A stretch of DNA of 61,599 nucleotides from a virus (IMGVR_UViG_3300006030_000002:1-61599); one strand, 5' to 3'; positions 5,573 to 60,801 are shown, counted from the stretch's first letter. Notes: generated by a model not told the origin, from the sequence alone. A program made the numbers and translations.

Positions 5573-5584
5573 GTCACACCTCAA

Positions 5585-6588: not shown

Positions 6589-7016
6589 TATTTTTCCTTT
6601 TTCGCCGTAATGATGTCTTCACCTTTGCGTACAGTGACCTTATCGCCTTCCACATCCACACGCATTGGCAGTTCCTGACGGTCCAGTTTGTCCAACTTCT
6701 CGATCAGGTGCTTGATAACTTCAAACTCAGGCTTTTCCTGCTTGGGAGAGGCACCGGCAATTCCGTTCAACATCGAGATCAACGCCGTAAGAGCGGCACC
6801 CAGCAAGCCCATAACGGCCGCAATCTTGTCAGCTTCAAGGAAGATACTGGCACCCACGCCGATCACGACAATAAGCGTGATATAGGCAAGTCCGTTACGA
6901 CCAATTGCTTTACCAGCTACTTCCTTGGCGCTGCTCTGCGCTTCCAGCCTTCCAAGTTCTGCCTTGACCTGCGCCTTGAAAAACGCAAGTTCGCTGTTGT
7001 CTGCGTCTTTATCCAT
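6588..7016 (-). CDS. 2-TM membrane protein in lysis cassette
   Basis: Two hydrophobic helices; ATG at 7016 directly after the upstream stop. Confidence 0.6.
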   Translation of the reverse strand: MDKDADNSELAFFKAQVKAELGRLEAQSSAKEVAGKAIGRNGLAYITLIVVIGVGASIFLEADKIAAVMGLLGAALTALISMLNGIAGASPKQEKPEFEVIKHLIEKLDKLDRQELPMRVDVEGDKVTVRKGEDIITAKKEK

Positions 7017-7017
7017 A

Positions 7018-29286: not shown

Positions 29287-29372
29287 TGTCCGATTATCTC
29301 GCGTGTCCGATTATCTCGCGCCGATTATATATTATTGATTATGTGCGCCGGATTATCTCGCGCTGATTACAT
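29287..29372. repeat. GATTA(TCTCGCG) direct-repeat cluster
   Basis: Exact 17-bp tandem TGTCCGATTATCTCGCG at 29287-29303 and 29304-29320; GATTATCTCGCG at 29351-29362; three more degenerate GATTA copies. Confidence 0.85.
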
Positions 29373-29464
29373 ATAACCCATTATTAATCGCATTTAATAA
29401 ACCCACCACGCAAATGGGCCGCGCGTTATTCAATGCTTTTAATAAATTGGACGGTTACATATAC

Positions 29465-29493
29465 TTGACATGACGCTAGGGGGAGCGTATGAT
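29465..29493 (+). promoter_or_regulatory. sigma70 promoter
   Basis: TTGACA-17-TATGAT. Confidence 0.85.
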
Positions 29494-29548
29494 TGCAATT
29501 GCTGCACCGTGTTTTTATCCATTAACTTTTTATCAGGAGATTCCAGCA

Positions 29549-30325
29549 ATGAAAAAAGCCACGAAGAAGATCGACCCGAAGTTCGCCGCCGCCGTGAAGC
29601 CCCTTGTTAGCATCACGCATAAAGCCCTCGAAGCCGTCGCAGAGGGTGAAAAGCATTTGAAAGCCCTCGGAGCGAAAGTGAAAAAAGCATTTCCCGAGCG
29701 TGGATTGTTCGAAGAGGGGAAAACCGCATTTATTGAAACGTGTCTCTGGACTGCGCCCCGCTATGCTGACCATGCCGCCGCATTGAAGGTCAAAATCAGC
29801 CCCAAGGATAAGAGCGCGAAAGCCAATGCGCAGCGCGACGCGAAAGCCGCCGCCCGTTCGTGCTTCGGTATGGCATTTTTGAATATCGCTGATTATGCAT
29901 ATGGCAAAAAAGGTAGAAGCGGCGAAACACGGGGACGCAAAGCCGCCGCCGCCCATGAGAAAATCCGAAAGCACCTCGAAGCCGCGAAGAAAATCGCGCA
30001 AGAGGCAGAAGCCCCTGCCTTCGTCCCGGCAGACGTTGTGAAGGGCTTGGATGCCGTGGTCGCCATGTTGCCGAATGCAATCAAGCCCGAGACGGCGAAG
30101 CCCGGACGACGCAAGCCCCAAGCCCCCACCAAGCCCACAACGGCGAAGCCCAAGGGGCGTAGCAAGGTCGCCACGCGCCGCGCCAAGGTAGCGGGAAAAC
30201 TGCAACCGGGAACGGTAGGGCTTGGCGACGCGAAACAGACTCTTGCCGGAGTGAAGCCCCGCCGCACCAAGGCAAAGCCCTCAACCAAACGTGACGCCCG
30301 TGACATGGTGGGCGCAGTAGGCTAA
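29549..30325 (+). CDS. Lys/Ala-rich early protein with histone-like basic tail
   Basis: ATG at 29549 after AGGAG; own promoter and terminators. Confidence 0.8.
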   Translation: MKKATKKIDPKFAAAVKPLVSITHKALEAVAEGEKHLKALGAKVKKAFPERGLFEEGKTAFIETCLWTAPRYADHAAALKVKISPKDKSAKANAQRDAKAAARSCFGMAFLNIADYAYGKKGRSGETRGRKAAAAHEKIRKHLEAAKKIAQEAEAPAFVPADVVKGLDAVVAMLPNAIKPETAKPGRRKPQAPTKPTTAKPKGRSKVATRRAKVAGKLQPGTVGLGDAKQTLAGVKPRRTKAKPSTKRDARDMVGAVG

Positions 30326-30342
30326 CCCTCCCCGCTCCACGC

Positions 30343-30368
30343 AGCCCCGCTTCGGCGGGGCTTTTTTT
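30343..30368 (+). terminator. rho-independent terminator
   Basis: AGCCCCGC-TTCG-GCGGGGCT plus T-tract. Confidence 0.9.
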
Positions 30369-30369
30369 C

Positions 30370-30413
30370 GCCCCGAGTTTATTAAGCGGTTTTAATAGAC
30401 TCGGGGCTTTTTT
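30370..30413 (+). terminator. second tandem terminator containing the 20-bp palindrome
   Basis: GCCCCGAGTTTATTAA...TTAATAGACTCGGGGC plus T6. Confidence 0.8.
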
Positions 30414-30490
30414 GAGCACTACTGTCACGATGAAGATGATGCAGCAGCAGCAGCACGACGCGCGGAGAGGGCACGAGCGGCTCACCGACT

Positions 30491-30795
30491 TTGTTCCGCT
30501 TTGTTCCTTTTGTTCCATTATCCGGAACACGCAAAAACGCGTGCAAGTCCTTGTTCTTGTTCATGTTCTTCTTAATTTATTTAGTTTGTTCCTTTGTTCC
30601 TTTAATATACGACGGGCTACGATTTCCCTTTACATTGTCCAAAAAAACGTGTTTATACGTGTTGGAGGGAGGCTTGCGGCAACCGACGTATACCGCGTTT
30701 TTCACCGGTACAAGACAACGAAGCGCCTAAACTATTGATTTCAATCATGTTCCCGTGTATTCTCGTTTTGCAACAAAGGAACAAACTATGGAACA
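30491..30795. repeat. TGTTC(C)/GGAACA iteron-like cluster, candidate replication origin
   Basis: About 12 copies in both orientations around an AT-rich patch in a gene-free interval. Confidence 0.6.
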
Positions 30796-30903
30796 TATAA
30801 CTATGCTAGAAAGGAGACGCTGATAATGTGAGCCACGTGAGCCAGTAGAACAGCCACACCAAAACAAGTTTTTATTAAACGCATTTAATCAATGGAGAAA
30901 GCC

Positions 30904-31212
30904 ATGAGCAACGACAAGCCCATCACCCTCGGAGAACTTCACCGCCTGAAAGGCAACCCCCTGCGCACCCCCGTTGCGCATCCCCCTTGCACCCCCACGC
31001 GCATCCCCCCGTACAACACGGGCAAGGTCAAGATCGGCATCTACTACGTGCCGCCGCAACGGGATCTGAACACCGAGGAAACCGACCATTGGCAGAACGT
31101 GTATTTGGGTGACTACAAGCGAAGCAAGCGAGCCGAGATCGGGTTGCGCCTGTACGTGATCGTGCTCGTTGTCGGGTTCGCCATTGGGTACTGGTTCCTG
31201 CGTGGCGTGTGA
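30904..31212 (+). CDS. hypothetical protein with C-terminal TM
   Basis: ATG at 30904 after GGAG; PYNTGKVKIGIYYVPP. Confidence 0.7.
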   Translation: MSNDKPITLGELHRLKGNPLRTPVAHPPCTPTRIPPYNTGKVKIGIYYVPPQRDLNTEETDHWQNVYLGDYKRSKRAEIGLRLYVIVLVVGFAIGYWFLRGV

Positions 31213-31236
31213 GACGGGTATGACAAGTTGAATAGT

Positions 31237-31265
31237 TTGACTTTCTAGTAGCGTTGTGGTATCAT
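31237..31265 (+). promoter_or_regulatory. sigma70 promoter
   Basis: TTGACT-17-TATCAT with extended TG. Confidence 0.75.
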
Positions 31266-31327
31266 ATGGGTGTAGTCGATGAAGCGTTTGGAGTTTTTAT
31301 TAAACGTGTTTAATGAAAGGGAGAGCC

Positions 31328-31591
31328 ATGCATTGGAACCATAGGGTCGTGAAGGTTGAAGAAGATTGCTACGTGTTCGCTGAAGTGTTTTACAACGACG
31401 AAACCAAGAAGCCCTACACGTGGACGGATGCGTTCCTCACGGGTGAAACGGTTGCTGATTTGAAAGAGTTGGTGGGTAGGCTGAACGAAGCGCTGAATGC
31501 GCCCGTACTGGATGAGAGCGAAATGACCGACAAGTCCAAGCCGAACCCGGAGATTGAAAGGCTGTTGCAGCAGATGGGGGACGACGCATGA
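31328..31591 (+). CDS. hypothetical protein
   Basis: ATG at 31328 after GGGAG; MHWNHRVVK. Confidence 0.75.
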   Translation: MHWNHRVVKVEEDCYVFAEVFYNDETKKPYTWTDAFLTGETVADLKELVGRLNEALNAPVLDESEMTDKSKPNPEIERLLQQMGDDA

Positions 31592-31806
31592 TGTACGAGC
31601 GAAACGGCAAGCGGTACGAAGTGGGTGATCGGATCTCGGTGCGGGAAGGTACGCGTGTGAAGTGGTATGAGATTGCCGACTTCAAGTTGAACGGCTCAAT
31701 ACTGGTGAAGTATTGGGAGAACGACGGCCCACCACGGTACGAACGTGCCGTGTTTCGGGTGGTGCAGCCTGACACGTTGGGGCTGACACCAATTAAAAGC
31801 GTTTAA
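31588..31806 (+). CDS. hypothetical protein
   Basis: 72 aa; ATGA overlap with upstream gene. Confidence 0.65.
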   Translation: MMYERNGKRYEVGDRISVREGTRVKWYEIADFKLNGSILVKYWENDGPPRYERAVFRVVQPDTLGLTPIKSV

Positions 31807-32043
31807 TAAATAGGACGACCCCAAATCAGCGATTTCACACGGAAACACGGGCAAACATGTTTACACAAGCCTCGTTCCAAAAAGTCCAAACCACACACGA
31901 AAACAATTTTGGACTTTTACCCTCGGAGAACACCACGGAAACCAAATGGAGGGCATCACAGAAATCAAACGAAGCACAAGCAGCAAACATCTTTCCACAA
32001 ACGACAACGGTATTTGCTAGCAAATACCCATAGGGAGATCACC

Positions 32044-32457
32044 ATGCAGACGTTCCTGCCATACCCTGACTTCACCCAAACTGCAAAAGCCCTTGATTAC
32101 CGACGGCTCGGTAAGCAACGGGTGGAAACCAAGCAACTGATACTTGCCCTGACACAACCCAAGTATGGGTGGAAGAACCATCCCGCTGCGAAGATGTGGG
32201 CAGGATACGTGCCGCTGCTTGCCGAGTACGGGCGCGTGATGTGTGAGGAGTGGCGCAGCCGTGGGTACAACGACTCGTTGTTGCCGTTCTTTTGTGGGTT
32301 TGATGAAGTGCGTGTGGCACAGGATGTACCTGCTTGGTTAGGGCTTGATTCTTTTCATGCCTCACACCGTAGCAACCTGTTGCGGAAGGACTTTGACTTT
32401 TATTCTCGGTTCGGTTGGAGCGAAGCGCCTGACCTGCCGTATGTGTGGCCTGTGTAA
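32044..32457 (+). CDS. pyrimidine-dimer DNA glycosylase/endonuclease V-like protein (MSMEG_6728 family)
   Basis: MQTFLPYPDF...LDYRRLGKQRVE...GWKNHPAAKMW...HASHRSNLLRK...LPYVWP. Confidence 0.8.
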   Translation: MQTFLPYPDFTQTAKALDYRRLGKQRVETKQLILALTQPKYGWKNHPAAKMWAGYVPLLAEYGRVMCEEWRSRGYNDSLLPFFCGFDEVRVAQDVPAWLGLDSFHASHRSNLLRKDFDFYSRFGWSEAPDLPYVWPV

Positions 32458-32486
32458 TTAAACCCGTTTAATAAATGGAGAGTGCG

Positions 32487-32693
32487 ATGAAAATTAATGG
32501 TTTTTCTGTTGTTGAGTGTCCGACTGCGGGTGATGGTGGCGTATCGCTGCGCCCGTTGAAGAAGAATGGAAATACGAAAGACCCCGAGATAACCGTCGTG
32601 ATTGACGGCGGGTACGTGGAGATTGGGTTGCACGTGGACGGAAGTGATGAACCCATGTGCGTGTTTAGGTCAGCAATCAGGGGGAGGTTGTGA
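32487..32693 (+). CDS. hypothetical protein
   Basis: ATG at 32487 after GGAGAGTG. Confidence 0.6.
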   Translation: MKINGFSVVECPTAGDGGVSLRPLKKNGNTKDPEITVVIDGGYVEIGLHVDGSDEPMCVFRSAIRGRL

Positions 32694-32863
32694 TGAAAAC
32701 GATGCGGGAAAAGGAGTTGGAGGATGCGTTGCGTGTTGCGATTGCCGTGATCCGGCACGGGAAACTGCACGAGGAGTTTAGTGGTGACAAGGAGTTCAAG
32801 GCGCGTAGGGGTTTCCCCCAAATCGTGGAGCATTTGCAGAACGTGTTGAAGCGAGTTGTGTAA
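32693..32863 (+). CDS. hypothetical protein (56 aa, below ORF-track cutoff)
   Basis: GGAGG RBS; TGATG coupling; MKTMREKELEDALRV...LKRVV. Confidence 0.65.
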   Translation: MKTMREKELEDALRVAIAVIRHGKLHEEFSGDKEFKARRGFPQIVEHLQNVLKRVV

Positions 32864-32892
32864 TTAAACCCGTTTAATAAAAGGAGAGTGTG

Positions 32893-33831
32893 ATGAGCCT
32901 GATCAAACCGATGCATTACTACGAGCGCATGGCGAAGCAATGGGAGATCACGAAGCCCATACGTGGGCGTGGTGTGGACACGCGCCCCATCGGTAAGCGT
33001 AGCCGTGACTGGGAGTTGATCGTGCGCATGTTGGGAGCCGACGGCATCGTGACGTACGGTGCGAAACTTTATAACACCGTGTGCGTGGAGTATTTCCCCG
33101 ACAGTTCATTCATCGTGCGGCATGATGACTGGGCTACGGCAAAGACCGCCGAGTTCATATCTGCCACGAGTCCATTCAGGTGCCGCAAGGTGCATAACTT
33201 TTTGTGGATGTTCGCCCATGACGGCGACGGGGTGAAGGCAATACCCGTAACCAAGGACGGCATAAAGTTCATGCACGATGGGACAACGTGGCGGTGCGTC
33301 AACATGCCCAGTATGAAGCGTAGGAAAGTCGGCTCCTACAAGGCGAAGCAAGCGCGTAAGCCACTCGCACCGTTCCTGAAGTTCGCTAAAACATTCTTGC
33401 GCATGAGCGATGGGTGGGTGATGCACGAGACATGCAAGCATGTGTTGGGTTGGAAACACGACAATCACGGGTACGGTGAGAGCATTCGCTCGGATGAAGA
33501 GCGCGTATACAAGATGCTCACCGACTCCACCGACCCGCTGATGACATTGCCCGAGGACGAGCGACACTTGTTCATGCTGTGCCTGATGTCGAGAATGAGT
33601 TGGTTCAATGACTCATACGATAACAAGCGCAGGGTTGCCGAACGGTTTGAATATGTCGAGAACTACAACGGGACTTCGTGGCCGCGTGTATCGGAATTCT
33701 ACGATGTGCGCGTGGAGTACGAACGTCTCAAGCACGTGCTGTATCGGTGGGTCAATCGGTTTGAGGATGTTCACGTGTACGTTGATGCGGAGATTGGCAG
33801 CAAGCCGATCTTGAATGCTTGCATTGCCTAG
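32893..33831 (+). CDS. hypothetical protein
   Basis: 312 aa; AAGGAGAGTG RBS. Confidence 0.8.
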   Translation: MSLIKPMHYYERMAKQWEITKPIRGRGVDTRPIGKRSRDWELIVRMLGADGIVTYGAKLYNTVCVEYFPDSSFIVRHDDWATAKTAEFISATSPFRCRKVHNFLWMFAHDGDGVKAIPVTKDGIKFMHDGTTWRCVNMPSMKRRKVGSYKAKQARKPLAPFLKFAKTFLRMSDGWVMHETCKHVLGWKHDNHGYGESIRSDEERVYKMLTDSTDPLMTLPEDERHLFMLCLMSRMSWFNDSYDNKRRVAERFEYVENYNGTSWPRVSEFYDVRVEYERLKHVLYRWVNRFEDVHVYVDAEIGSKPILNACIA

Positions 33832-33847
33832 TGCGTTGTGTTACAAT
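33819..33847 (+). promoter_or_regulatory. sigma70 promoter
   Basis: TTGCAT-17-TACAAT with extended TG. Confidence 0.7.
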
Positions 33848-33913
33848 GTAACTTGTTGGTAGGTGTTGTCTTTGTTCGTTTCTATTAAACCTGTTTAATA
33901 AAAGGAGAGTGCA

Positions 33914-34987
33914 ATGGCTGTTCTTAACTTTGGTCACAGCGTTTCCCTCAACGAGTTTGCCCATGCAATTCAAACCGTGGGTACTCAAGTAACCATCATC
34001 GGGCAAGGTGAGATGGGCATCGGTAAATCTACCGTGCTGAAGATTCTCGCCAAGCGTATGCCCGAGTATGAAACTGCGTATATTGATTGCACCCTGCTCG
34101 ACTTGGGTGACTTCGCGCTGCCGTATGTGGTCGAGGAGAACGGAGTCAAGGTCACGCACTTTGCACCCAACGCACGGTTCAAGTTCCATACCGGCAAGCC
34201 CGTGCTCATTATGTTGGACGAGATCGGCAAGGCGATGAAGGCAGTCAAGAATGTGCTGTTGACTCTCATACTGGAGAAGCGCATCGGGGATCATTACTTG
34301 CCCAAGGGTTCGATTGTGTTTGCCACTACTAACCTTGCAGCCGAGGGACTGGGCGACATGTTGGAGGCGCATGCCCGGAACCGTGCGGTAGTGGTGAAGA
34401 TTCGCAAGTCTGACGTTGATGAATGGATCGAGTGGGCTATCGGTAATGGGATTGCGCCCGAGATCATTGCGTGGGTTAAGCAGTTCCCGCAATCGCTTGC
34501 GTCATTTACTGACTCGTCGCAGAAGGACAACCCATACATTCCGAATCCCACCCGTGCGGGTGATGGTGCAGTGGTCACGCCCCGGTCATTGGAGAAGGCA
34601 AGTCACATTGCTAAACAAAGAGCCACGCTTGGCGATGCGCTGACCATCTCCCTGCTGACTGGCACTATTGGTGAGAGCGCAGCCCGAGACATGCAAGCAT
34701 TCTTCACCGTGGTGGACAAGTTGCCCACGTGGGAGCAGATTACCAAGACACCCGACACGGCTAAACTTCCTGACGATGCGGTGGCACGGTGCATCCTTGT
34801 GTTCAGCGCGATCACTCGGGTTGAGAAGGAGACGCTCGGCAAGTGGATGGACTATCTCAAGCGCATGGACAAGGAGTGGCAAGCCCTGTTCGCCACTAGC
34901 GTGATGAAGTCCACGCTGAAACAGCCGTTCTGTATCAGCAACAAGGAGTTCAAGGACTGGGCGATTGCTAACCAATGGTTGTTTTAA
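33914..34987 (+). CDS. MoxR/dynein-related AAA+ ATPase
   Basis: GEMGIGKS (Walker A), IMLDE (Walker B), ATTN sensor, TPRS. Confidence 0.85.
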   Translation: MAVLNFGHSVSLNEFAHAIQTVGTQVTIIGQGEMGIGKSTVLKILAKRMPEYETAYIDCTLLDLGDFALPYVVEENGVKVTHFAPNARFKFHTGKPVLIMLDEIGKAMKAVKNVLLTLILEKRIGDHYLPKGSIVFATTNLAAEGLGDMLEAHARNRAVVVKIRKSDVDEWIEWAIGNGIAPEIIAWVKQFPQSLASFTDSSQKDNPYIPNPTRAGDGAVVTPRSLEKASHIAKQRATLGDALTISLLTGTIGESAARDMQAFFTVVDKLPTWEQITKTPDTAKLPDDAVARCILVFSAITRVEKETLGKWMDYLKRMDKEWQALFATSVMKSTLKQPFCISNKEFKDWAIANQWLF

Positions 34988-34999
34988 TAGGAGAGTGAC

Positions 35000-35215
35000 A
35001 TGTACGTACCAATGCTTAACCTGAAGGGGAGCAAGACGAAGTACAGGAAGTACGTGCGTAGGGGTATCCGTATGCGTGAGCCGAAGTTCAAGGAGTTGCG
35101 CGAGTCGATGTCGGATCGTCAGGCACGTAACGCACGGGAGTACAAGTATGTGTGCCATCAAGTGATGGTGTGGCCCCCGTTCGGTAGCGCGTGGCGAAAC
35201 GAATGGAGCATGTAA
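35000..35215 (+). CDS. hypothetical basic protein
   Basis: 71 aa; GGAGAGTGAC RBS. Confidence 0.6.
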   Translation: MYVPMLNLKGSKTKYRKYVRRGIRMREPKFKELRESMSDRQARNAREYKYVCHQVMVWPPFGSAWRNEWSM

Positions 35216-35243
35216 TTAAACATGTTTAATAAAGGAGAGTGAC

Positions 35244-36485
35244 ATGGGTAAGTTGACTGTTGAGCAGATGGTTCAGAAGGAGCACGTGTGGCTGATGAAG
35301 AACCCGAAGTATTGCCTGTACTCGGGGATCATCATGGTTGGCAAGACCGAAGTGTGTGATGACGTTCCGACTGCGTGTACCAACGGGCGCGACACGTTCT
35401 ATGGGCGCAAGTTCATGAGCAAGTTGTCGGTGAAGGAAGCCCGTGCCGTGATCTTGCATGAGAATCTGCACAAGGCGTTCCGGCATACAACTTTGTGGAA
35501 GCATCTATACAAGGACTGGCCCATGTTGGCGAACATGGCATGCGACTACGTGATCAACATCCTGATCCACGACTCTGACCCGCAAGGTTTGGAGGTGAAG
35601 TTGCCTGACTGTGCGCTGCTCGACTTTGATTACCGTGGGCTCGATGCGGGTGAGGTGTTTCGTAGGTTGAAGAAGCAAGCCGAGGGTATCGGCCCGAGCG
35701 GTGCGGGTGGGTCGGGGTCGATCCGCGTCAAGACTGTGGGGGATCAGGTCGGCAAGGACATTCCAGTTGTCAAGGGTGACAGCGTTGGTGATGGGTTCGA
35801 CGAGCACGACTGGGAAGGCGCGGAGGAGATGACGCAGGAAGAGAAGGAGACGCTTGCGAAGGACATCGATCAGGCGCTGCGTCAGGGTGCGATCCTCGCA
35901 GGAAAGATGTCTGCCGATGTGCCACGTGAGATCGGTGAGTTGACCGAGGCGAAGGTGGACTGGCGCGAGGCGCTGCGTGAGTTCGTGACTTCCTTCTGTC
36001 AGGAGCGCGATACGAGCACGTGGCGCAGACCATCCCGTAGGTGGATCGGACAAGATGTTTACATGCCGAGCAGCATCGGTGAGTCAGTTGGTCGCATGAC
36101 GGTGGCTATCGATATGTCCGGGTCTATCGGGCAGGAGGAGATCGGTGCGTTCCTGTCCGAGTTGCGTGAGATCTGCAAGACGGTGACGCCGGAGGGTATC
36201 GACCTGCTGTATTGGGATACGCAAGTGTGTCAGCACGAGAAGTACGAGCGTGACCAGTTGGAGAACCTGTTGAGCACGACAAAGCCGCGAGGCGGTGGCG
36301 GGACTGCGCCGCAATGCATCGTGAACTACATGAAGGCGAAGCGACTCAAGCCCGAGTGTGCGGTGATCCTGACCGACGGGTATGTGGGTGATGACTGGGG
36401 TAAGGGGTGGGAGTGTCCGACGTTGTGGGGTATCACGACGAAGGGTATCTCGTCGAGTGTTGGCAAGACGGTGCATGTGTCGTGA
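35244..36485 (+). CDS. DUF2201-type metallopeptidase-VWA protein
   Basis: TACTNG, HENLH (HExxH), MIDAS residues DMSGS...GGGT...LTDG. Confidence 0.85.
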   Translation: MGKLTVEQMVQKEHVWLMKNPKYCLYSGIIMVGKTEVCDDVPTACTNGRDTFYGRKFMSKLSVKEARAVILHENLHKAFRHTTLWKHLYKDWPMLANMACDYVINILIHDSDPQGLEVKLPDCALLDFDYRGLDAGEVFRRLKKQAEGIGPSGAGGSGSIRVKTVGDQVGKDIPVVKGDSVGDGFDEHDWEGAEEMTQEEKETLAKDIDQALRQGAILAGKMSADVPREIGELTEAKVDWREALREFVTSFCQERDTSTWRRPSRRWIGQDVYMPSSIGESVGRMTVAIDMSGSIGQEEIGAFLSELREICKTVTPEGIDLLYWDTQVCQHEKYERDQLENLLSTTKPRGGGGTAPQCIVNYMKAKRLKPECAVILTDGYVGDDWGKGWECPTLWGITTKGISSSVGKTVHVS

Positions 36486-36670
36486 AGCATGCGTGGGGTA
36501 TTTGTCAGGTGGGTGACTTTTTCATGCCTGCTCGGGCTTTCAATTGGAGTGGGATGAGTGAGTGGAGTTATATGCAGGAGTACGGCACCATGAGTTACGA
36601 AGAAGCACACGCAATTTCAAAACTACTTAACGCAACCAACCAAGGAGAGTGCAATCATGATTCAGAATAG
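36482..36670 (+). CDS. hypothetical protein
   Basis: GTGA overlap with the VWA gene stop; fills the gap. Confidence 0.45.
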   Translation: MKHAWGICQVGDFFMPARAFNWSGMSEWSYMQEYGTMSYEEAHAISKLLNATNQGECNHDSE

Positions 36671-37523
36671 TTCTGTATTGGTCGATGTGAACGTGTCGGT
36701 GTGGACGGGTCGCAAGATGGACAAGAAGGTGTCCGACGAGATCGACGCCGCGAAGAACACCAAGGTACGTGGCGGTAACTACCACAAGCATCTGCTTGCC
36801 GGTGCGTTGCAGTTGGAGAACATTCAGAAGTTGGTGGGTGGTGTGCGCATGTGGCACTACAATCAGACGTTGCCGTGGGCTGATAGCGGTGCGCGTCTGT
36901 TACCCATGAAAAACTTCTTTGACTACAAGGCCATGCTCGGTAACTTTGAGAAGCAGTTCGATGACCTTGTGCAGAAGTTTCTTGCTGACTACCCGACGCT
37001 TGTCTCTGCGGCTGCGTTCCAGTTGGGTGACTTGTTCGATGCGGGTGAGTACCCTGATGTGGAGAAGTTGCGTGACAAGTTTCGGTTCCGCTACGTGTTC
37101 ATGCCCGTGCCCGAGGTGGGTGACTTCCGCGTAGATGTGAGCGAGGCAAGCAAGAAGGAGTTGCAATCACAGTACGAGAAGTTTTACGAAGAGCGCTTGG
37201 CTTCCGCCACGAAAGACGCATGGGACAGGCTGCATGAGTGCGTCAAGCATATGAGCGAGAAGTTGGCTGACGCAGAAGTTCCACGTGAAACGAAGTATGG
37301 GGCGAATCACACGAAGATTTTCCGCGATTCCCTCATCGACAACGCCAACGAGTTGTGTGCGCTGCTGACCAAACTTAACGTGGCTAACGATCCCAAGTTG
37401 GAGCAAGCCCGTCAGGAGTTGGAGCGCACCATCAACGGCAAGTCTGCGGATGCGCTGCGTAACAGCGATGATCTGCGCCGTGACACCAAGGCCAAGGTGG
37501 ACAAGATCTTGGAAATGTTTTGA
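36657..37523 (+). CDS. DUF3150-like protein
   Basis: LVDVNVSVWTGRKMDK...TLPW...RLLP pattern; usual partner of AAA-VWA pairs. Confidence 0.6.
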   Translation: MIQNSSVLVDVNVSVWTGRKMDKKVSDEIDAAKNTKVRGGNYHKHLLAGALQLENIQKLVGGVRMWHYNQTLPWADSGARLLPMKNFFDYKAMLGNFEKQFDDLVQKFLADYPTLVSAAAFQLGDLFDAGEYPDVEKLRDKFRFRYVFMPVPEVGDFRVDVSEASKKELQSQYEKFYEERLASATKDAWDRLHECVKHMSEKLADAEVPRETKYGANHTKIFRDSLIDNANELCALLTKLNVANDPKLEQARQELERTINGKSADALRNSDDLRRDTKAKVDKILEMF

Positions 37524-37560
37524 GAGTTATTAAACCCTTTTAATAAATTGGGAGAGTGAC

Positions 37561-38418
37561 ATGCTAGTTTTTGAGAAACCGAACGCGAGTGTCGTGCCTG
37601 AAATTAGTTTGGTGACGATGCTCAACGCATTGAGTGTCGGGCACGTGAGCCGGTATCCGATCAACGTCAAGTATCGTATGGCGAGTGAGGCGTGGCTCGT
37701 GGATAGCCGCCTACCATTCAACGAGTGGACGAAGGAAGAGGCGATTGCAATCATTAATCTTTCAAAGAACGACGATGGCAAGGATGAATATCACCTGTAT
37801 AGCAAACGCATCAAGAATGAGAAGTTCAATAATTTCTCACCCGGATACAACACTCGCCAAACCTCCGATGCGAAGAAAGCCTTGAGGCAACTGAAAGATA
37901 TTGCTACGTCCTTGGAGCCGAAAGAACTTGCACGGCGTAGCGAAAGTATCTATATGGAAATGAATTCGTGGGCGCGTGAACCCGTAGGCGAAATAAACAG
38001 CCTTGTCTCGCAAGTGCGTCGTGAAGATGTGCTCAACGAAGTGCTGTATCTCGCCTCTGTGGGTGTTCAGTTCAAGTCAGACATATTCAAGAAAATCAGC
38101 GTACACGGGCGAGAATTGCAACTGGAAGCGATACGCAGGGAGAAAGCCGCGTCATCTGAAAACACGTTTGTTCTTTACGTGTACCAACAACCTGATGGGA
38201 TCGTTAGTGTTATCGCGGATGGCAGGATGAATTCGGGCATGGCAAACCTGTCATGGACTTACGAGAACATGGAGTCCGTGCCTGATGTCATACGGCAACA
38301 AATTGCTCTGTTGAATCTGTGCGAAGAGGACAAGTACGTTCCCGAGGTCGGCAAGCGCGATCCGCAGAAAGGCTACTGGGTTCAGGTGGACAGGGAAAAA
38401 TTCACGCCCTCCACTTGA
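37561..38418 (+). CDS. hypothetical protein
   Basis: 285 aa; GGGAGAGTGAC RBS. Confidence 0.8.
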   Translation: MLVFEKPNASVVPEISLVTMLNALSVGHVSRYPINVKYRMASEAWLVDSRLPFNEWTKEEAIAIINLSKNDDGKDEYHLYSKRIKNEKFNNFSPGYNTRQTSDAKKALRQLKDIATSLEPKELARRSESIYMEMNSWAREPVGEINSLVSQVRREDVLNEVLYLASVGVQFKSDIFKKISVHGRELQLEAIRREKAASSENTFVLYVYQQPDGIVSVIADGRMNSGMANLSWTYENMESVPDVIRQQIALLNLCEEDKYVPEVGKRDPQKGYWVQVDREKFTPST

Positions 38419-38443
38419 CGCATGCCTCATGCTTCCATATATT
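38415..38443 (+). promoter_or_regulatory. sigma70 promoter
   Basis: TTGACG-17-TATATT. Confidence 0.65.
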
Positions 38444-38467
38444 GAAAGGGTTGGACTAACTGTAACT

Positions 38468-38770
38468 ATGCTTCAATCAAATAACTTACGGTACGTAGTC
38501 ATTGCGCATGTGTGGGACAACGGGGACATCGACTACATCAACGTGCTCGACAACAAGATGCTGACCACAGAGGTACTGGACGGACGGTTGGTGCCTGACT
38601 GGGTGCGTGAGCGTGTAGCGTTGTTGCGGTTGTGTGATGTCAACAAAACAGGACAAGGAGAAATTCTCGGCAGAAAATTTACAGACCATATGATCTACGT
38701 GTACCTGAACCACAAAGAACATAAGCAACTAACAAAGATATCCAACTCAACTCAAGGAGCAGAGCAGTGA
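38468..38770 (+). CDS. hypothetical protein
   Basis: Start placed after the promoter; VPDWVRERVALLRLC resembles VPDVIRQQIALLNLC of the upstream gene. Confidence 0.6.
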   Translation: MLQSNNLRYVVIAHVWDNGDIDYINVLDNKMLTTEVLDGRLVPDWVRERVALLRLCDVNKTGQGEILGRKFTDHMIYVYLNHKEHKQLTKISNSTQGAEQ

Positions 38771-39174
38771 AACTCACCAAAATACAGAAGATCACCAACT
38801 ACGCAAAGAACCACCCTGAAGGGTTCTCCCCCAAGCAACTCATGGAGGACACGAAAATCAAGGACAAAAACATTTGGGTTACTCTGTCCAAGATGAAGAA
38901 GCAGGGCTTGCTGAAGCACAATACCAAGACGCGCAAGTACAAACTATTAAATACGTTTAATAAACCGGGGAAGGTGAAACTTGATCCGGCGCGTGAGAAC
39001 GATGTGCAAACCATCTCCTACTTGGTGGATCAGACGGTTGACTTGGCCACCGCTAGGGATGAAGCCAACAAGAAGTATGAGGATGCGCTTGCCATCATCC
39101 GCTACTTGGAGCACAAGTTGATCACCTCCATCCAGTACGCTACGCGCAGCGATGACGCCCGAGGCAAAGGTTAA
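38767..39174 (+). CDS. winged-helix DNA-binding protein (putative)
   Basis: FSPKQLMEDT.IKDKNIWVTLSKMKKQGLLKH...YKL pattern plus C-terminal coiled coil; AAGGAG RBS. Confidence 0.6.
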   Translation: MKLTKIQKITNYAKNHPEGFSPKQLMEDTKIKDKNIWVTLSKMKKQGLLKHNTKTRKYKLLNTFNKPGKVKLDPARENDVQTISYLVDQTVDLATARDEANKKYEDALAIIRYLEHKLITSIQYATRSDDARGKG

Positions 39175-39445
39175 GAAGAAGGTCGTTGCCATACTGAAAG
39201 AGTGTGGCGCGTACTACTTCTACCCAGTCACGGGTGGCTATGGTCGCTCGGGGGTTCCTGACATTGTGGCGTGTTGGAAGGGACGGTTCATCGGCATCGA
39301 GTGTAAAGCCGGGGACAACACCACCACACCGCTGCAAGAGAAGAACCTCCGAGAGATCAGAGAAAGCGGTGGTACAGCCTTGGTCATCACAGAGAAAGAA
39401 ATACCTTGGCTCACGAACGCAGTACGAAACAACCTTCTCTTCTAA
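39152..39445 (+). CDS. VRR-NUC domain nuclease
   Basis: PEAKVK...GVPDIVAC..GRFIGIECKAG....TPLQ. Confidence 0.85.
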   Translation: MTPEAKVKKKVVAILKECGAYYFYPVTGGYGRSGVPDIVACWKGRFIGIECKAGDNTTTPLQEKNLREIRESGGTALVITEKEIPWLTNAVRNNLLF

Positions 39446-39660
39446 AGCCCCGTGCTAGGCCAAGCGATGGGAAGCGGCTTCGGACATTACGATTTGTTCG
39501 GAGTCGTTTCTCTGCTTGCGCATCAGACGTTGCGGCTTACTTGCGCGTGAGCAAGCGTCAGGCATCCCGTTACCTCCTCCACCTGACGAACGAGAATCTC
39601 ATTTATCCCCGACACCAAGTCGGTAATGCCATATACTTTTCCCAACGGAGAAAACAATGA
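39406..39660 (+). CDS. HTH protein (start uncertain)
   Basis: ASDVAAYLRVSKRQASRYLLHL. Confidence 0.5.
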   Translation: MAHERSTKQPSLLKPRARPSDGKRLRTLRFVRSRFSACASDVAAYLRVSKRQASRYLLHLTNENLIYPRHQVGNAIYFSQRRKQ

Positions 39661-39950
39661 AGTTCCAAAACCTCATGCTTGCCATGCAACTGGCTCGGGT
39701 GAACAACCTTAACACTACCGACATCTTTATTCTTAACGAGGTCTTTTGCGCCGATAACAACACAACTACTGTCATGAAGATTGTGGAGCAGAAGTTTGCG
39801 TCACACGTTACAATCCATAACCACCTCAAAAAACTATGCAAAGCGGGGTTCCTCATCAAAAAAGAGCACCCCAAAAACATGCGGTTCAAAAGCGTCGAAC
39901 CGGGCGAAGAATTTGTAACCTTCCTACGTAAGTTGGGGGAAATCGAATGA
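39657..39950 (+). CDS. MarR-like winged-helix protein
   Basis: SHVTIHNHLKKLCKAGFL...NMRFKSV; GGAG RBS. Confidence 0.6.
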   Translation: MKFQNLMLAMQLARVNNLNTTDIFILNEVFCADNNTTTVMKIVEQKFASHVTIHNHLKKLCKAGFLIKKEHPKNMRFKSVEPGEEFVTFLRKLGEIE

Positions 39951-50663: not shown

Positions 50664-50680
50664 ACACCGGGGCTTTTTTT
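50652..50680 (+). terminator. rho-independent terminator where the two arms converge
   Basis: AGCCCCGGT-TAAAC-ACCGGGGCT plus T-tract. Confidence 0.85.
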
Positions 50681-53600
50681 ATTCCTCGTCTCCGAATATT
50701 TCCCTACGAAGTTCCGGTATCAGGTTTTTATTGAATCGAACCCCGTAGATAGTGTTCTTTTCTGCTGCCTTGGTGGCCCGATCAGAACGCTGAAGACTCT
50801 CTTCAGTGATGGCAAACTCCGGATGCGCATCGTTGAATTTTTGGATGCGGTCCATGGCTTCATAATACGTAGCCACACTTCCTGATTTGACTGCCATCTC
50901 AAACAACCGCAGCGCCCCTTGCCTACGTTCTTGCGTCTCTCGCTGGTATTGTCTACCCGAAGAAAGCATCTCATAACGGTTTGACAAATCTGCCGGTGCA
51001 AATCCAACCACCTGCATAGCGACGTTATAAGCGTTGATATCTTCCATGATTGGCAAGCCGTCGCGTGTTACCACACCTTCTTGCGAGTACCTCCAAGCCT
51101 TCAGCGGGTTACGCAACGCGCTTGGCAGGATGGCTTCCAAACCACGCTGTATTTCCCCATTTTTGAAGTACTTGATAGACCGTTCTGTATTGATACCAAT
51201 TGACCCAAGGGGGCCAGCAGCTTGCTGCATTGCAGAAAGAAAATACCCGTTTTCGGCTATCCCGCGCGGGTCATCACGGAAAATTATGTCGGACGCAAGT
51301 GCCGCACGGCTTGAGATCTCCGCGTTCAACAAGTAGTTGGCAAACCCCTTGTACAACCACATTGGGAGGTTTTCGCGCAAAATATCATCAAGGTTAAAGG
51401 GTTTCTCATCATCACCAAACAAACTAGCAATCATTTCTATGATTAGCGATGTAGCCCCGTAGAACGGCATTCCCTTGACACCAACAAACGCCGTTGCCAT
51501 TCCATACATAGCCACCAACTGTTTACGTGCGGCGTTTCTTACGTCAGCATCTTTGCCTGCCGCCGCTTCATAGAATGCACGTGCAATCACAAACGCGTGT
51601 TGCCAAATAATTGCTTTGAACGTCCCGAAGATACGCCCAATCGGAGTCTGAAACCACCGCGAACCCGTAACAGCCATACCCGACGTATGCGCAGTGCGGA
51701 CGGTATCTAGTGCGTACTTGATTGCCGCTTCCTTGTCTTTGGTGCGCTCATACTCAAGGTTGTAGGCAGCGATTGCCGTGGAAGCACGGTTGAACTTCTC
51801 GCTCACGGTGAACGGAATGGACACCAACTCCATTACCTTTGCGCCAAAACTGTTGAATTCACCCGTGGTTTTGCGCCGACCTTCCAGTACTTCACGGGCT
51901 ACCGTGTGCTCAAGCTGCCCGTGTTCCATCAACGCAGAATAAAGCGCAGCGTACTTGGGATTGCTTGCCCAGTCATTACCCGGAGCGGCTTCCCGCATGG
52001 CAGAGATGAGAGCACCCGGTGCCTGTAATCCAAACCGTCCCGACAGTATCGGAAACACCATCAACGGCAGCGAAGTCAGGTTGATAATGCCTGACGAGAT
52101 GTTTCCAGCCATGAACTCGTAGTAGCTCAGAGCCGTGGCACCATGAACGATCTTTCCATAAGTCGGATTGTGGAAGAAGTCTTTCTGGCGCAGGATGCTT
52201 TTCGCCACAGCCACAACCGAAGGTGACTGCTCACTGGCTTCTTGTGCAAGCTGGATGAGGGCTTGGTCAATCTGCGGCAAAAACTCCGAGTTGTTCAGTT
52301 TGCGCGTCCAACGCACCATGAGGTCGCCATAGCCTTGGATGAGATCCTTGTTCATCCCTTCGACACCACGCCGGGTCATGAACTGCTTGGCAATTGACTC
52401 CGCAGGGAACGCAGCCAAGTATGCTTGATATACGCTGTTGATGTGCTCTTGGCTGGCCCCCTTGCTCTGCAATCCGGCAATAACTTTTGAAATAAAGTGG
52501 GTAGGGGGCACACGATTAGCGCTATATGCGATGTCCTCAAGGCGTTGGAACTTGCGGTGGTCAATACCTTTCAGGTTCTGCGCAATAAATTGGTCGCGTT
52601 CGCGCACGGTATCGAACACCATGCTTACCGGAGCGTCGTTCTCCGGATTGACAAACTCAAGCCAAAAGTCACCTTTACCACGCAGGAATGGCACGTACCC
52701 CGTCAGCGGATGGTTTAACTCAAACTCGTCTTTCAGGGTTGCAGTCAGGCTCTCATTCCCTTCGGCTGCTTTTTCGAGCAACTGCCGGTACCGGTAGAAC
52801 GCTTCGTCGTACTCCTGACGAATGGTTTCATACACCTTGCGCACTTCGGGTGGCAGCTTCAGGTACTGGTCGCGCAGCAACCGGTGCTCGTCCTCCCGCT
52901 TGGCTTCAGCAGAGTTGAATACGTTTAGCTGAGTCGGAGACATGCGCTCCAAGCGCTTCGGAGAAAGCTGTTTCTTTTTGAACGGCTTGGTGATATCAAC
53001 TTCTTTTTTGCTGGCTTCTATGGAAAGCTCGTCCATCTTGCGCATTTGTGCGGGAAACTTCTGCTGCACGGCAACGGCATCGGTGTAAGTCTTGTTGACT
53101 CCACGGATATCGAGTTCCTCGCGTGCGGCTCGCTTTTCAAGCACATCCTGCAACGTGCTAATGGAAGGCAGTTCCTTGCCGTACATCTTGATGAGGTTAT
53201 CCAGCCGGAAAGCGCCAAGCGCTTCTTCAAGCAACGTGCCACTCTCGGTCAGTTTGGATATGAGATTGCGAGTGGATTCTACGGTGCGTCCAACAAGCGG
53301 GGGCATTGCGTTGCCAGCCTTGGCAACAAGCGACATGTCTCCATCCCCGAGGAACATACGCTCGCCCAAAGATGCTTCGATACCGTTGGTGATATCGATG
53401 GTGTCGTGAATGAACTTGAGGCCGGTATCGAACGCAGTTGTCCCACGCGCAAACCCAAAGAACTCCGCGATCTTGCGGAGGAAAGCCATGAACAAGCTCT
53501 CGCTCTTCGGTGTCTTGATGGTCTTGAGCAGCGCTTGGAATGATGGGTTGCTTATCAACTCAGCCGCAAACTCCTGCAAATTTGTGCCACCGTACGCACC

Positions 53601-56600
53601 GCCCATCCTGTCCTTGATGGACAAGAAGAACTTTTCAAAGTCCTTGGTCAGCGGGTGGTTGGAGTTAGCCAATACTTTGGAGACAGCAGCGTGCATAACC
53701 TCATGGATAAAGGTGTGCGCGTTCATCCCGCCCTTGGGATCGAGCATGATGGTGTCGGTAGCGGGATCGTAGGAACCGGATTTGTTTGCTGCGTATCGGA
53801 TGTCTGGGTTGGTTGGGTCGTAGGTGCCAATATTGCCGATGGCGGATTTGATTTGTTCAGGGCGGAAGGCGACTACTTCCATCTTTTTACCCGAAGCAAT
53901 AATTATTCCATCATATCCTTGAGCTTCTAATTCTCTGGAAAGAGCTTCAGCTTCAGAACGACTACGAACAACTCTTTTTTCTTCGGGCCAATAGTACGGA
54001 TTTTTTATAGCAACGAATACGGGAAGAACTTTTGCCCCGGAGTTATCTGCTGCATACGCGTTTGCAGTGCTTGGGTCCGCCGCAAAATAAATCCCACGCC
54101 CATATATCCCAAAGTCAGTATTTTCCCCCGCGCGAGCTACATCAAAAGAAACAAAATCTTTGTCGGTACCGTGATACACCCGCAACGGGTTCCCATTCTC
54201 ATCAACAACTTTGCTATCACCAAACCACGCACGGAACGCAGGATTCTCAAGCGACAACGGCCCAGTCGGGTCGCCAATCACCAGTTTTGTCTTGAGATTC
54301 AAAGAGCGCAGGCGGCGTAGCACCTGCTTGATGGCAGGATCTCTGGTGGAGTCGAGTAAGTTACGCAGAAGCCCATTAATGTCTCCGCGCTCTGCAAACG
54401 CACGCTGGGTGGCGTCAAACTCCGGCCCTTGATACTTTGGCAAGTACAGGTGCGAATCCGGGTCAAGGTAGTGCTCGCCTATAACTTCTTTAGCGGCTTT
54501 TCTCTGTTCCTTGCTTGAAAGAGGCTCTACTGGTGCTTCACTCGCAGCCGCTTCAGCTTCAAGCGCTTTAATTTCTTCGGGCGTGAGGTTTTTGCGCCTG
54601 CTCAACTGGCTGCGAAGGTCTTCAATCTTCTCTTCAACTGGTACTTCTTCCTCGACTAGTGCACCCGGCTGCGTTTCTTTTCCTCCAACAATCCGTCGAG
54701 GAGTGACTTCAGGAGCACCCACTCCACCTCGTTCAGTCGGTTCAGCGGGTACGGCAGCACCTCCGGGGGTTCCTCCAGCGACAGGAGCTTCAACGCCTGC
54801 TCCACCTGCTTCTGTGTCAATTCCTGTAACACGTTGTTCTCCTTCAGCACTGGGGAGTCTGGAAAGCAGCCGTTCAAGTTTTTCGGACGCGCCTTCAACG
54901 GTAGTGCGGTTACGGTATTCGCTTCCCTCCAAAAGTCCCTCAAGCACAGCACGAATTTGAGGAGCATGCTCGGGATTTGCCAGATCCAAACCAGCGATAC
55001 CGCCTTCCCCAATATTCTTTCCGGGGGGTTGCCGCAGAAAACTGGCGCTCGCACCAACTCCAAACACTTCCTTGGAGATCTTGCGCAGGTCATCAATCTT
55101 GGTAGAAGTGATGTCTGGATATGAATACTTGGCAGACTTGGGAACGATGGGCGTGCCGTCAGGCAGGGTTGCCTTCTTTGCAGCCTCAATGATTCCTTGT
55201 CGGGTTTCAACCGGGATGGTTACGTCACTGGTAAGCGCCTTCCGAAATTCGGGCTGTCTGAGTTCTGCAATGTTGGGTACGAGAGCATTCCAGTCTTCGT
55301 TCCACCCGATATCCCGCATTTGCTCAAGGCCCAACTCACCCTTGCGCATGCCTCGTTGTTGAAGTTGATCAAGCGGAGACTCGGCTTTCTGGAGCGTTTG
55401 CTCAATCGGACTGGGTTGTTGGGCGAGGCCAGCAAGATCCAACTCACCTTTTTTGACCAGCGGCTTGCCTTCCTCAGAGACAAACGATTCAGGCGTGTAC
55501 TCGGCAAGGCGCTCTTTAAGTGCTTGCTGATCTTTCTTGAACTGCGCTTCTTGCTTCTTAAATTCTTGCGGCGTAATTGCGCCAAACTGCTGAACAGGGC
55601 TGTATGGGCCAGTTGTTTCACCAACACCGTAGGCTTCTTGCTCTGCTTCTGTAGTGGGGCGTTGCGCGGCTTCGATCTGGGCGCTGGCAGCTTCCGCTTC
55701 CTGTTCAATACGTGCAGCTTCTTGCCGCAGTTGTTCTGCTTCTTGCGCCCTTCCTTCGGCTTCAGCCTTTGCTGCTTCTTGACGTTTCTGCTCGGCGCTC
55801 TCGCGCAGTTTTTCTACGCTTCTACCCGCCGTGCTGAACGCGCCACCTGCAACTGCGCCAGCAACGGCGCTCTCCATGATGCGGTTCCATTCCTTGCTAC
55901 CAAACACCAACGGGTTATCGCCTACAAACTTTTCGGCAGCAATGCTGATGGCTTCCTGTGCACCTTCCGTAAGGCCTTCGGTAGTAGCACCTTTTACAAA
56001 TGCGGTGGTGAGCGGACGCACCAAGCCCTTGTCCATGCCGGATTTCTCCAGCACTTTGCCGACAATCGCAGCCCGCATTGGGCCGCTAACCTGTTTTGAA
56101 AGTTGGGCAGGGAGAATGGAATCAAGTGCGGCCGACCCCAAAGAAAAAAGTGCAGCCGCTCCGGGCGCTAACTCGCCCCCTGTTTCTTCATAGATGTTCT
56201 GAAATATTTCAGGAGCATTGAGCGCATAAGACCCAAGGTACGTTCCTGCTAACTGCCCACGAGCAACTGCTGTCCCAACTTCTGGAGACGTAGTAATAGC
56301 AGTCCGCAACCCTTGTTTGACGTATTGCTCTGCGGCTTCTTTGGCCAACCCTTTTTCTGCTGCTTCAGCAGCAAGCCTACGAGTGATGGGCGCTACGGCA
56401 GCCCGACCGGCGAGAGAGCCAACGCCAACACCGGGAATAACAGCAGCGGCGATATTGGCACCCTGCTCACTGATCTTTTCAGTCGCATACTTTGCAAAGT
56501 CGCCAAGCCCCTCAATTTCTTTGTAGGAGCGGAACAGTGTGGGGTATTTCTGTTCGCGGGCGGCTTCTTTCTCCGCGTACTCCTGCATCTGTTCTTTGGC

Positions 56601-56858: not shown

Positions 56859-56898
56859 ATTTTCCTTTCCGGCACTTCATGGCGTGCCTGCCAAAAAG

Positions 56899-58929: not shown

Positions 58930-58930
58930 C

Positions 58931-60373: not shown

Positions 60374-60801
60374 ATCAATACCTCTACGAGAGTGTTTCTT
60401 GGTTCAAAGTTGTAGCGTTTCCACAAACGCACGATGGCGTCACGTCCATAACCTTGAATCTTGGTTGCACCACTTGCTTTAAGGATTGTTTTCAGTTGCT
60501 GAAACGTATCGTCATTTGAAATCAGTTTGCCGCCAATTGTGGTGATAAACGCCACACGGTGCAGTGGGTAGTTGATGAAGGACACCGTGCAGGCTCCATG
60601 AATCCGTGCCTCTTCGTCTATGGCAACAATCAACGTCCACTGCCCAGACACAAGAAACTGAAGAACATGGTCAGTGTTGTACGTAGCTGCCCAATCAGGA
60701 AAATCGTGCCCTTTAGTGAGCGCGTCATCCACATACTGCCTGACGTGCGGCCACGTTTGGTTTATGTAATTGACGCCAACTGGGACTATTTTTAGGTTCA
60801 T
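60370..60801 (-). CDS. GNAT-fold-like protein (P22 gp14 / T7 gp13 position)
   Basis: 143 aa; GACTVSFINYP...TIGG...GATKIQGYGR...WKRYNF. Confidence 0.55.
   Translation of the reverse strand: MNLKIVPVGVNYINQTWPHVRQYVDDALTKGHDFPDWAATYNTDHVLQFLVSGQWTLIVAIDEEARIHGACTVSFINYPLHRVAFITTIGGKLISNDDTFQQLKTILKASGATKIQGYGRDAIVRLWKRYNFEPRNTLVEVLI

Follow-up and report, generated by a model that had tools for sequence, protein, structure and literature searches.

Here, we describe an array of short palindromes in the early region of a freshwater phage represented by the virus record IMGVR_UViG_3300006030_000002:1-61599. The whole stretch of 61,599 nucleotides is referred to below as the window. Twelve near-identical, AT-rich palindromes of 20 bp are present, all of them in the early region and most of them at gene junctions. 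Relatives of the phage harbor arrays of the same kind, in which different palindromes occupy the same junctions. Thus, each lineage appears to carry its own private set of protein-binding switches. Our preferred reading, to which we give slightly better than an even chance, is that the palindromes are dispersed operators in duplex DNA for a two-fold symmetric (dimeric) protein that would control early genes.

Twelve Palindromes in the Early Region

The symmetric consensus TTATTAAAC-NN-GTTTAATAA is matched 12 times with at most two mismatches and at no other place in the 61.6-kb genome. Specifically, TTATTAAANNNNTTTAATAA finds 12 matches with zero to two mismatches, compared with a mean of 0.01 and a maximum of 1 in 100 dinucleotide shuffles. 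All 12 copies fall within 29381-38963 of the 61,599 bases. A preliminary description of this DNA had placed copies at 29381, 29426, 30379, 30872, 31297, 31790, 32455, 32861, 33882, 35213, 37527, and 38944, and a copy begins exactly at each of these coordinates. The literal pattern given there, TWATTAAA-N4-TTTAATAA, is matched without mismatch at only 4 of the 12 places. With a weight matrix derived from the 12 sites, their own scores are 25.9-39.0 bits (+ strand). Because the best score in the remainder of the window is 14.5 bits, the earlier statement that no full copy exists elsewhere stands, and a similar density of sites elsewhere in the genome, which had been named as a sign against a specific array, is not seen.

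The information content of the 12 sites displays the conserved arms and variable center originally noted. In a natural strain, all changes in the copies at 29381 and 29426 are central (29392, 29433, 29434, and 29437), and the arms are kept. A right-arm half-site reported near 34983 also exists. This half-site, TTTAATAG (34983-34990), includes the stop codon of the ATPase gene and is followed by GGAGAGTG, which supplies the Shine-Dalgarno (SD) sequence, and by ATG 35000 of an inserted 71-aa open reading frame (ORF).

Copies 1 (29381-29400) and 2 (29426-29445) lie upstream of the first early promoter, P1, a sigma-70-like sequence on the + strand predicted by consensus scan only (29465-29493; TTGACA-17-TATGAT, 11/12). 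The center of copy 1 is about 110 nt before the predicted transcription start. The -35 hexamer is 19 nt beyond the end of copy 2, the center of which is at about -65. The first early gene (29549-30325, + strand), a divergent member of the family that we call fam9, encodes a protein with a basic Lys/Ala/Pro-rich tail. Tandem intrinsic terminators follow (30343-30407, + strand), and copy 3 (30379-30398) forms the tip of the second hairpin (30370-30407; -44 kcal/mol, z -7.4). Copy 4 (30872-30891) is 12 nt before ATG 30904. A second sigma-70-like promoter from the consensus scan, P2 (31237-31265, + strand; TTGACT-17-TATCAT with TG), precedes copy 5 (31297-31316), which spans about +24 to +43 of P2 and lies 11 nt before ATG 31328. 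Copy 6 (31790-31809) covers the last codons and the stop of ORF 31588-31806, with no start codon close downstream. The first letters of copy 7 (32455-32474) are the stop of a Pyr_excise-like gene, and ATG 32487 is 12 nt further on. The 20 letters of copy 8 (32861-32880) are identical to those of copy 7, and the copy is 12 nt before ATG 32893 of core gene fam1. Copy 9 (33882-33901) is 12 nt before ATG 33914 of the gene for a MoxR-like AAA ATPase, copy 10 (35213-35232) is 11 nt before ATG 35244 of a DUF2201 (VWA-like) gene, and copy 11 (37527-37546), the sole copy with no mismatch to the symmetric consensus, is 14 nt before ATG 37561 of core gene fam5. Copy 12 (38944-38963), the last before the replication module, lies in frame within a winged-helix ORF (38767-39174; codons 60-66).

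Seven copies (30872, 31297, 32455, 32861, 33882, 35213, and 37527) therefore end 11-14 nt upstream of a start codon, with GGAG(AG)TG in between. The preliminary description had also reported upstream stop codons inside several copies, two copies upstream of the first promoter, one in a terminator, and one within a coding sequence. These placements are confirmed; the copies that contain a stop codon number four (31790, 32455, 32861, and 35213).

Lineage-Specific Palindromes at Shared Junctions

A search with the ATPase returned 135 stretches in viral contigs, from which 80 loci with 68-79% identity were kept, each with 10 kb on either side. The commonest exact 6-N-6 palindrome is present in at least three copies in 70 of the 80 loci and in at least five copies in 48; among shuffled loci, the count is 0/80. 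The array is thus a family trait, and the lack of conservation among relatives that would have spoken against a function is not what we find. Seven relatives, each estimated to be at least 94% complete, carry their lineage palindrome 8-14 times in one stretch of roughly 8-18 kb. In the same seven relatives, a reversed control pattern has 0 matches, and two one-mismatch outliers lie outside the palindrome stretch.

The palindrome sequence differs by lineage. At least nine classes exist, which we label A (the window) to K, a labeling of our own. Examples include ATTAACA-NN-TGTTAAT (37 loci), ATAAACA-N0-2-TGTTTAT (17 loci), ATACTGTC-N-GACAGTAT (11 loci), and ATAATGTC-N-GACATTAT (6 loci). Synteny maps place copies of different classes at the same junctions. 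The ribosome binding site (RBS) consensus beside the palindrome, GGAGAGTG, is common to all classes, while the palindrome itself changes. A copy is near the start of the ATPase gene in 56 of 79 loci, of the DUF2201 gene in 53 of 73, of fam1 in 44 of 72, of fam8 in 35 of 53, and of fam5 in 29 of 54. The corresponding counts are low for the Hjc-like gene (0/54), fam10 (3/45), and the DNA polymerase gene (0/25).

The distance between palindrome and SD also depends on class: the SD is in the palindrome center in class B, abuts the palindrome in classes A, C, and H, and is found as far as about 35 nt downstream in classes D and E. In locus L011, the palindrome instead comes immediately after the ATG. 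That locus has seven paralogous small ORFs (fam51) in tandem at 5500-7600, five of them with the lineage palindrome right after the start codon, so the first residues of these proteins are dictated by the palindrome. Equivalents of copy 2, located 15-20 nt before TTGACA/TTGACT, exist in L039, L042, L065, L071, and L074. In a dense region after fam5, copies lie within the coding sequences of fam30, fam19, or fam7, and the encoded residues follow the lineage palindrome.

Comparisons between and within classes are informative about specificity. Class B has one invariant palindrome in loci that range from 40 to 55% GC. Classes D and E are closely related, with ATPases that are 85.5% identical, and their palindromes differ by one base per half-site. 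Loci L008 and L012 contain hybrid sites that join a class-B left arm to a class-C right arm, which suggests, from sequence comparison, that half-site specificity drifts stepwise. In class C, half-sites are 0, 1, or 2 bp apart in one genome, and the 1-bp form is kept at orthologous sites. Specifically, in class C (e.g., L065 12278, 13142, and 14106), upstream copies have a 2-bp center and three copies downstream of the ATPase gene have a 1-bp center, a split common to L039, L042, L048, L065, and L071. This split suggests two affinity classes or two readers.

A DNA Element or an RNA Element

We compared 522 de-duplicated sites with their class consensus at the inner six arm positions. The left arm alone departs in 146 cases and the right arm alone in 136, compared with 1 compensated pair. 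Among mismatched arm pairs on the transcribed strand, 115 are G-T, 172 are A-C, and 585 are of other types, with no G-U excess. The symmetry extends to the innermost bases, which are unable to pair around a 1-nt center. RNA folds of seven junction copies, compared with those of shuffled sequences, have z scores of -1.6 to +0.5, and only the terminator copy, with its GC-rich flanks, is stable. Compensatory changes, G-U tolerance, and above-background stability, the hallmarks of a structured RNA, were each tested for, and the sites do not display them. We favor the interpretation that the arm sequence is read, and not base pairing. Given the one-sided arm changes, the absence of G-U bias, the unstable RNA hairpins, and the copies upstream of P1 and in coding sequence, the molecule that is read would be duplex DNA.

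A competing idea is that the element functions in RNA. If so, the transcribed palindrome would be a hairpin or a protein site before each RBS, acting in translational repression or coupling, in processing into monocistronic units, or in protection from RNases. The 7 of 12 copies that end 11-14 nt before a start codon are in line with this idea, as are the class-B sites, in which the SD (AGGAG/AGGTG) occupies the palindrome center with a + strand bias, and the L011 palindromes directly after the ATG. Likewise, variable half-site spacing of the class-C type is natural for hairpin loops, and one copy lengthens a terminator hairpin. However, 282 one-sided changes stand against a single compensated pair, hairpin stability is no better than that of shuffled sequence, and the symmetry includes non-pairing bases. 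Moreover, copies exist upstream of the first promoter and in ORFs distant from any start, and for many class-D and class-E copies, the SD is 15-35 nt past the palindrome end, beyond the reach of a ribosome footprint. We therefore judge an RNA-level element improbable.

Proposed Dispersed Operators for Early-Gene Control

The preliminary description proposed that a dimeric protein binds the sites as operators or elongation roadblocks. That proposal fits the arm symmetry without compensation, the unstable RNA hairpins, the copies away from start codons, and the lineage switch at junctions; the binding itself, its effect on transcription, and the encoder of the reader are what we infer. Each site would be read through two half-sites of 9-10 bp, about one helical turn apart. 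The sites appear to mark an early operon transcribed from sigma-70 promoters by host RNA polymerase, extending from just upstream of the first promoter to the replication-gene boundary. The bound protein would most likely block or occlude RNA polymerase at promoters and at every gene junction, and the consequence would be coordinated shut-off or timing of early genes. The lineage-specific palindrome would then constitute a private code for each phage lineage.

Several observations weigh against dispersed operators. First, the seven copies 11-14 nt before starts make for a tight link to translation starts, one that genome compaction may not fully explain. Second, a rigid dimer would not normally be expected to tolerate half-sites whose spacing varies, as it does in class C. 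Third, one relative, L016, keeps the core genes and has no repeated palindrome; no further L016 contigs were found. Fourth, on the transcript side, no RNA runs containing the window phage were found. Finally, no binding protein was identified among the candidates examined. The preliminary description had named the helix-turn-helix (HTH) proteins encoded at 38767, 39406, and 39657 as possible readers, and none of the three co-varies with the palindrome: within class B, where relatives have a common palindrome, the recognition helices are highly divergent. By family, the recognition helices of fam30 (38767), fam15/41 (39406), and fam10 (39657) either vary within class B or are alike across classes, and we rejected these candidates. 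A screen for class-specific conserved columns in eight universal families of the 80 loci found at most two per family, equal to the ATPase.

The three rejected proteins are encoded in a cluster of short winged-helix genes on the + strand (38767-39950), comprising 38767-39174, 39406-39660, and 39657-39950, with an Hjc-like nuclease gene in between. By fold, winged-helix proteins encoded after the last palindrome copy are plausible readers; co-variation does not support them. Other families provide few leads. For fam1, fam5, fam8, and fam9, no PDB sequence match has an E value below 0.1. A structural model of a fam9 relative, from the family of the first early gene, is all-alpha (pLDDT 89), and the model of fam8, which is DUF3150-like, has a pLDDT of 75; searches with the two predicted folds returned no PDB structure at E 0.001 or better. 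A protein atlas search with fam1 and fam5 yielded no usable lead. Fam26 looks by eye like a ribbon-helix-helix (RHH) protein and occurs in classes D and E only (16 of their 17 loci); Pfam does not support an RHH assignment. The reader may be encoded outside the 10-kb flanks of the loci, may be of an unrecognized kind, or may be a host protein. We consider a phage-encoded reader somewhat more likely than a host-encoded one.

A host reader would be a variant of the DNA-operator proposal. In this scenario, the reader would be a regulator or nucleoid protein recruited from the host, and differences between palindrome classes would mirror those between host groups. No phage protein that we examined co-varies with the palindrome, the class-B palindrome is more conserved than any candidate phage DNA-binding protein, and the sites have the size and shape of ordinary HTH operators, all of which would be expected of host-protein sites. 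Because class B spans 40-55% GC, however, several hosts per palindrome are suggested, the one-base half-site difference between classes D and E and the hybrid sites look like drift of a private code, and 12 near-perfect copies are unusual for a host regulon. We assign the host-protein scenario a low probability.

Possible Recombination and Cassette Exchange

A further proposal, which we regard as a long shot, combines two roles. At each early-gene junction, the 20-bp palindrome would be read by a novel kind of DNA-binding protein or a hijacked host factor, and the palindrome plus RBS would also be a joint for early-gene swaps between co-infecting relatives. If true, a single element would link regulation, exclusion of relatives, and cassette exchange, making for an integron-like early region with no integrase.

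Evidence for joints derives from segment ends and gene arrangements. Of 379 ends of high-identity segments shared by related loci, 22% are no more than 15 bp from a palindrome; for random places, the figure is 3.4%. Breakpoints occur at 92 of 217 palindrome junctions and at 131 of 530 others (odds ratio 2.2), counts that are pseudo-replicated among related loci and based on crude ORF calls. The ATPase stop codon keeps a half-site, with a full copy behind the inserted 71-aa ORF, and L009 has an extra gene between fam8 and fam5 with a copy on each side. A joint near 32493/32881 is ambiguous, with one side of 39 nt. Because breakpoints are about twice as frequent at palindrome junctions, a secondary role in recombination is possible on the sequence evidence. 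The recombination-joint alternative raised in the preliminary description thus gains modest support as a secondary function, not as the primary one.

Taken as the primary function, recombination joints would make the palindrome plus consensus RBS a portable cassette boundary for exchange between co-infecting relatives or between copies, and the uniformity of palindromes within a genome would reflect spread. The breakpoint excess, the half-site beside the 71-aa ORF, and the flanked L009 gene are consistent with this idea. Against it, the junctions scored as lacking a palindrome include doubtful ORF ends, conserved arms around a free center indicate sequence selection over recent copying, and copies before promoters and within conserved genes are not cassette borders. 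Twenty bp is also short for homologous exchange, and no recombinase, integrase, or transposase match exists in our ORF annotation (59 window ORFs compared with PHROGs and 44 with Pfam). A primary role as joints is, in our estimation, the least probable of these proposals. We rejected the possibility that the palindromes are promoters, since the SD lies inside or just after the palindrome, which must therefore be in the mRNA, and sigma-70-like promoters exist elsewhere; as for a replication origin, a separate TTGTTCC iteron cluster fits that role better.

Of the nine TTGTTCC copies in the window, six are located at 30491-30784, after the terminators and before the next genes: five are direct repeats within 110 bp, and one is inverted. 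L009 and L010 have a similar TGTTCC cluster after the second palindrome, and L016 has a cluster of GCTACTCAA repeats at the equivalent position. The TTGTTCC cluster may be an iteron-type origin for the DUF927 primase-helicase.

Comparison with Known Systems

Dispersed operator arrays are already known in temperate actinophages and in plasmids. Cluster A phages contain 20-30 dispersed repressor sites, with a consensus that differs between subclusters along with the repressor (PMC6550527). Stoperators are 13-bp asymmetric sites, oriented with transcription, that are distributed genome-wide and bound by a monomeric immunity repressor in temperate phages (PMC6550527, PMC9283540). The present array resembles the Cluster A stoperators (L5, Bxb1) in having many near-identical short sites at gene junctions, mostly outside promoters, and a lineage-private consensus. 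Unlike stoperators, the present sites are 20 bp long and symmetric, with left-only and right-only arm departures in near balance (146 vs 136), and they are confined to the early region in the window and likewise clustered in relatives. Also unlike temperate phages with stoperators, the window phage has no repressor or integrase match in the ORF annotation and no close relatives in bacterial genomes. Because the present sites are symmetric and restricted to the early region, we limit the comparison to function. The analogy with L5 stoperators drawn in the preliminary description holds to that extent and fails for site structure and spread. At stoperators, the bound protein halts transcription elongation.

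In the IncP plasmid RK2, the KorB (OB) and KorA (OA) palindromic operators are repeated at promoters and at distant places and provide global, coordinated repression (PMC11790492). The present palindrome is similarly located both at promoters and at a distance from them (about -65 of P1, +24 of P2, and promoterless junctions). KorB differs in being a ParB-family, CTP-dependent sliding clamp, for which the window ORFs contain no ParB-like match, and its element is a plasmid, not a virulent phage. RK2 has about twelve OB sites.

Other repeated elements are more distant. The CIR sites of Streptomyces phage phiC31 are repeated inverted repeats in the early region that are bound by the phage repressor, and the SAS/ESAS motifs of Cluster K mycobacteriophages are conserved motifs immediately upstream of start codons, of which SAS is asymmetric and includes the RBS. 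Both differ from the present array in belonging to temperate actinophages, whereas here the palindrome changes beside a constant RBS (GGAGAGTG). T4-type PeSL cassettes and integron attC sites are repeated stem-loop elements that flank small early genes or cassettes and for which gene shuffling is proposed or known. Unlike PeSL, the present repeat contains no promoter, and its breakpoint support is only about twofold. Integron attC sites are far longer than the 20 bp seen here, and no integrase match exists in the ORF annotation. REP/RAYT systems pair a Y1 transposase with imperfect, GC-rich palindromes at gene 3' ends, whereas the present palindromes are AT-rich and adjoin translation starts; transposase families have no match among the window ORFs. 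Finally, in contrast to the hairpin early promoters of N4, for which the reader is a virion RNA polymerase, the present array is accompanied by sigma-70-like promoters, with no RNA polymerase family match in the ORF annotation. A 2059-aa virion protein has a weak PHROG match (E 3.9e-4) to the N-terminal part of a vRNAP family.

The array is thus a variant on dispersed-operator arrays such as stoperators and KorB sites, and a member of neither. What is new is an array in a virulent-looking freshwater phage family, with symmetric sites, restriction to the early operon, and a sequence that switches between lineages at constant junctions. With nine or more specificity classes, hybrid sites linking two of these, and one lineage in which the system was lost, the family provides a natural series for studying how a code and its reader co-evolve. 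Early-to-middle switching and cross-interference between co-infecting relatives can likewise be approached through the array. With the reader in hand, short orthogonal operator/reader pairs could be useful for synthetic biology.

The Phage and Its Setting

The window represents a complete virus record and carries terminal repeats. Structural and packaging genes are on the minus strand (1-29,042 and 50,679-61,562). A plus-strand block at 29.4-50.5 kb contains small genes and encodes the MoxR-like AAA ATPase, the DUF2201/VWA protein, winged-helix proteins, a family A DNA polymerase, an exonuclease, a helicase, and the DUF927 primase-helicase. No match to RNA polymerase, integrase, transposase, repressor, recombinase, or ParB families was found in the ORF annotation. 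Searching 185,579 bacterial genomes with the ATPase, an approach that detects close relatives only, returned one match at 24% identity. Because no integrase was found and bacterial genomes provided only this distant match, the phage family looks virulent, as judged from sequence.

The phage family is abundant, uncultured, and from freshwater. Window DNA was found again in freshwater metagenomes from 16 studies, and the cultured phage collection contains zero DNA matches to the window. The terminase shares 56-58% identity with its counterparts in Pelagibacter phage HTVC027P, phage 023Pt_psg01, and phage DSL-LC04, and the ATPase is at most about 28% identical to that of any cultured phage. The first 50 kb of phage DSL-LC04 contain no repeated palindrome. 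Pseudomonas phage Rollin (L083), a distant cultured relative with a primase that is 28% identical, has four copies of AAAGGTAG-N7-CTACCTTT at positions 3-500; these are clustered within 500 bp at one end of the record and are not dispersed. Among the papers listed by a literature search, with supplements outside its scope, none describes the present palindrome-array family, and DUF3150 is mentioned in one unrelated preprint.

Some features of the window and its relatives could concern further regulation. Three copies of CCGATTATCTCGCG (0-1 mismatch; 0.28 expected) are present at 29290-29362, in the divergent stretch that separates the packaging genes from the early promoter, where a natural strain has a 29-nt insertion. 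They may serve a second regulator or act as a packaging signal. Many relatives encode a C4 zinc-finger protein of about 70 aa that is TraR/DksA-like by eye (fam6; e.g., L015 5975-6250), and some have a protein limited to sigma-70 region 4 (fam33; e.g., L031 6915-7073 and L047 8062-8340), with Pfam Sigma70_r4 above threshold. Both are likely modifiers of host RNA polymerase, and the window seems to lack counterparts of either.

Two further genes encode recognizable domains. An early gene at 32045-32457 specifies a pyrimidine-dimer DNA glycosylase domain (Pyr_excise, E 2.4e-22) and, among relatives, is present in class C only. The 2059-aa virion protein mentioned above is encoded at 50679-56858 on the minus strand. 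It is a polyvalent protein with an ADP-ribosyltransferase domain (ART-PolyVal), LPD39, and a DarB-like C-terminal part, and it probably enters the host together with the DNA.

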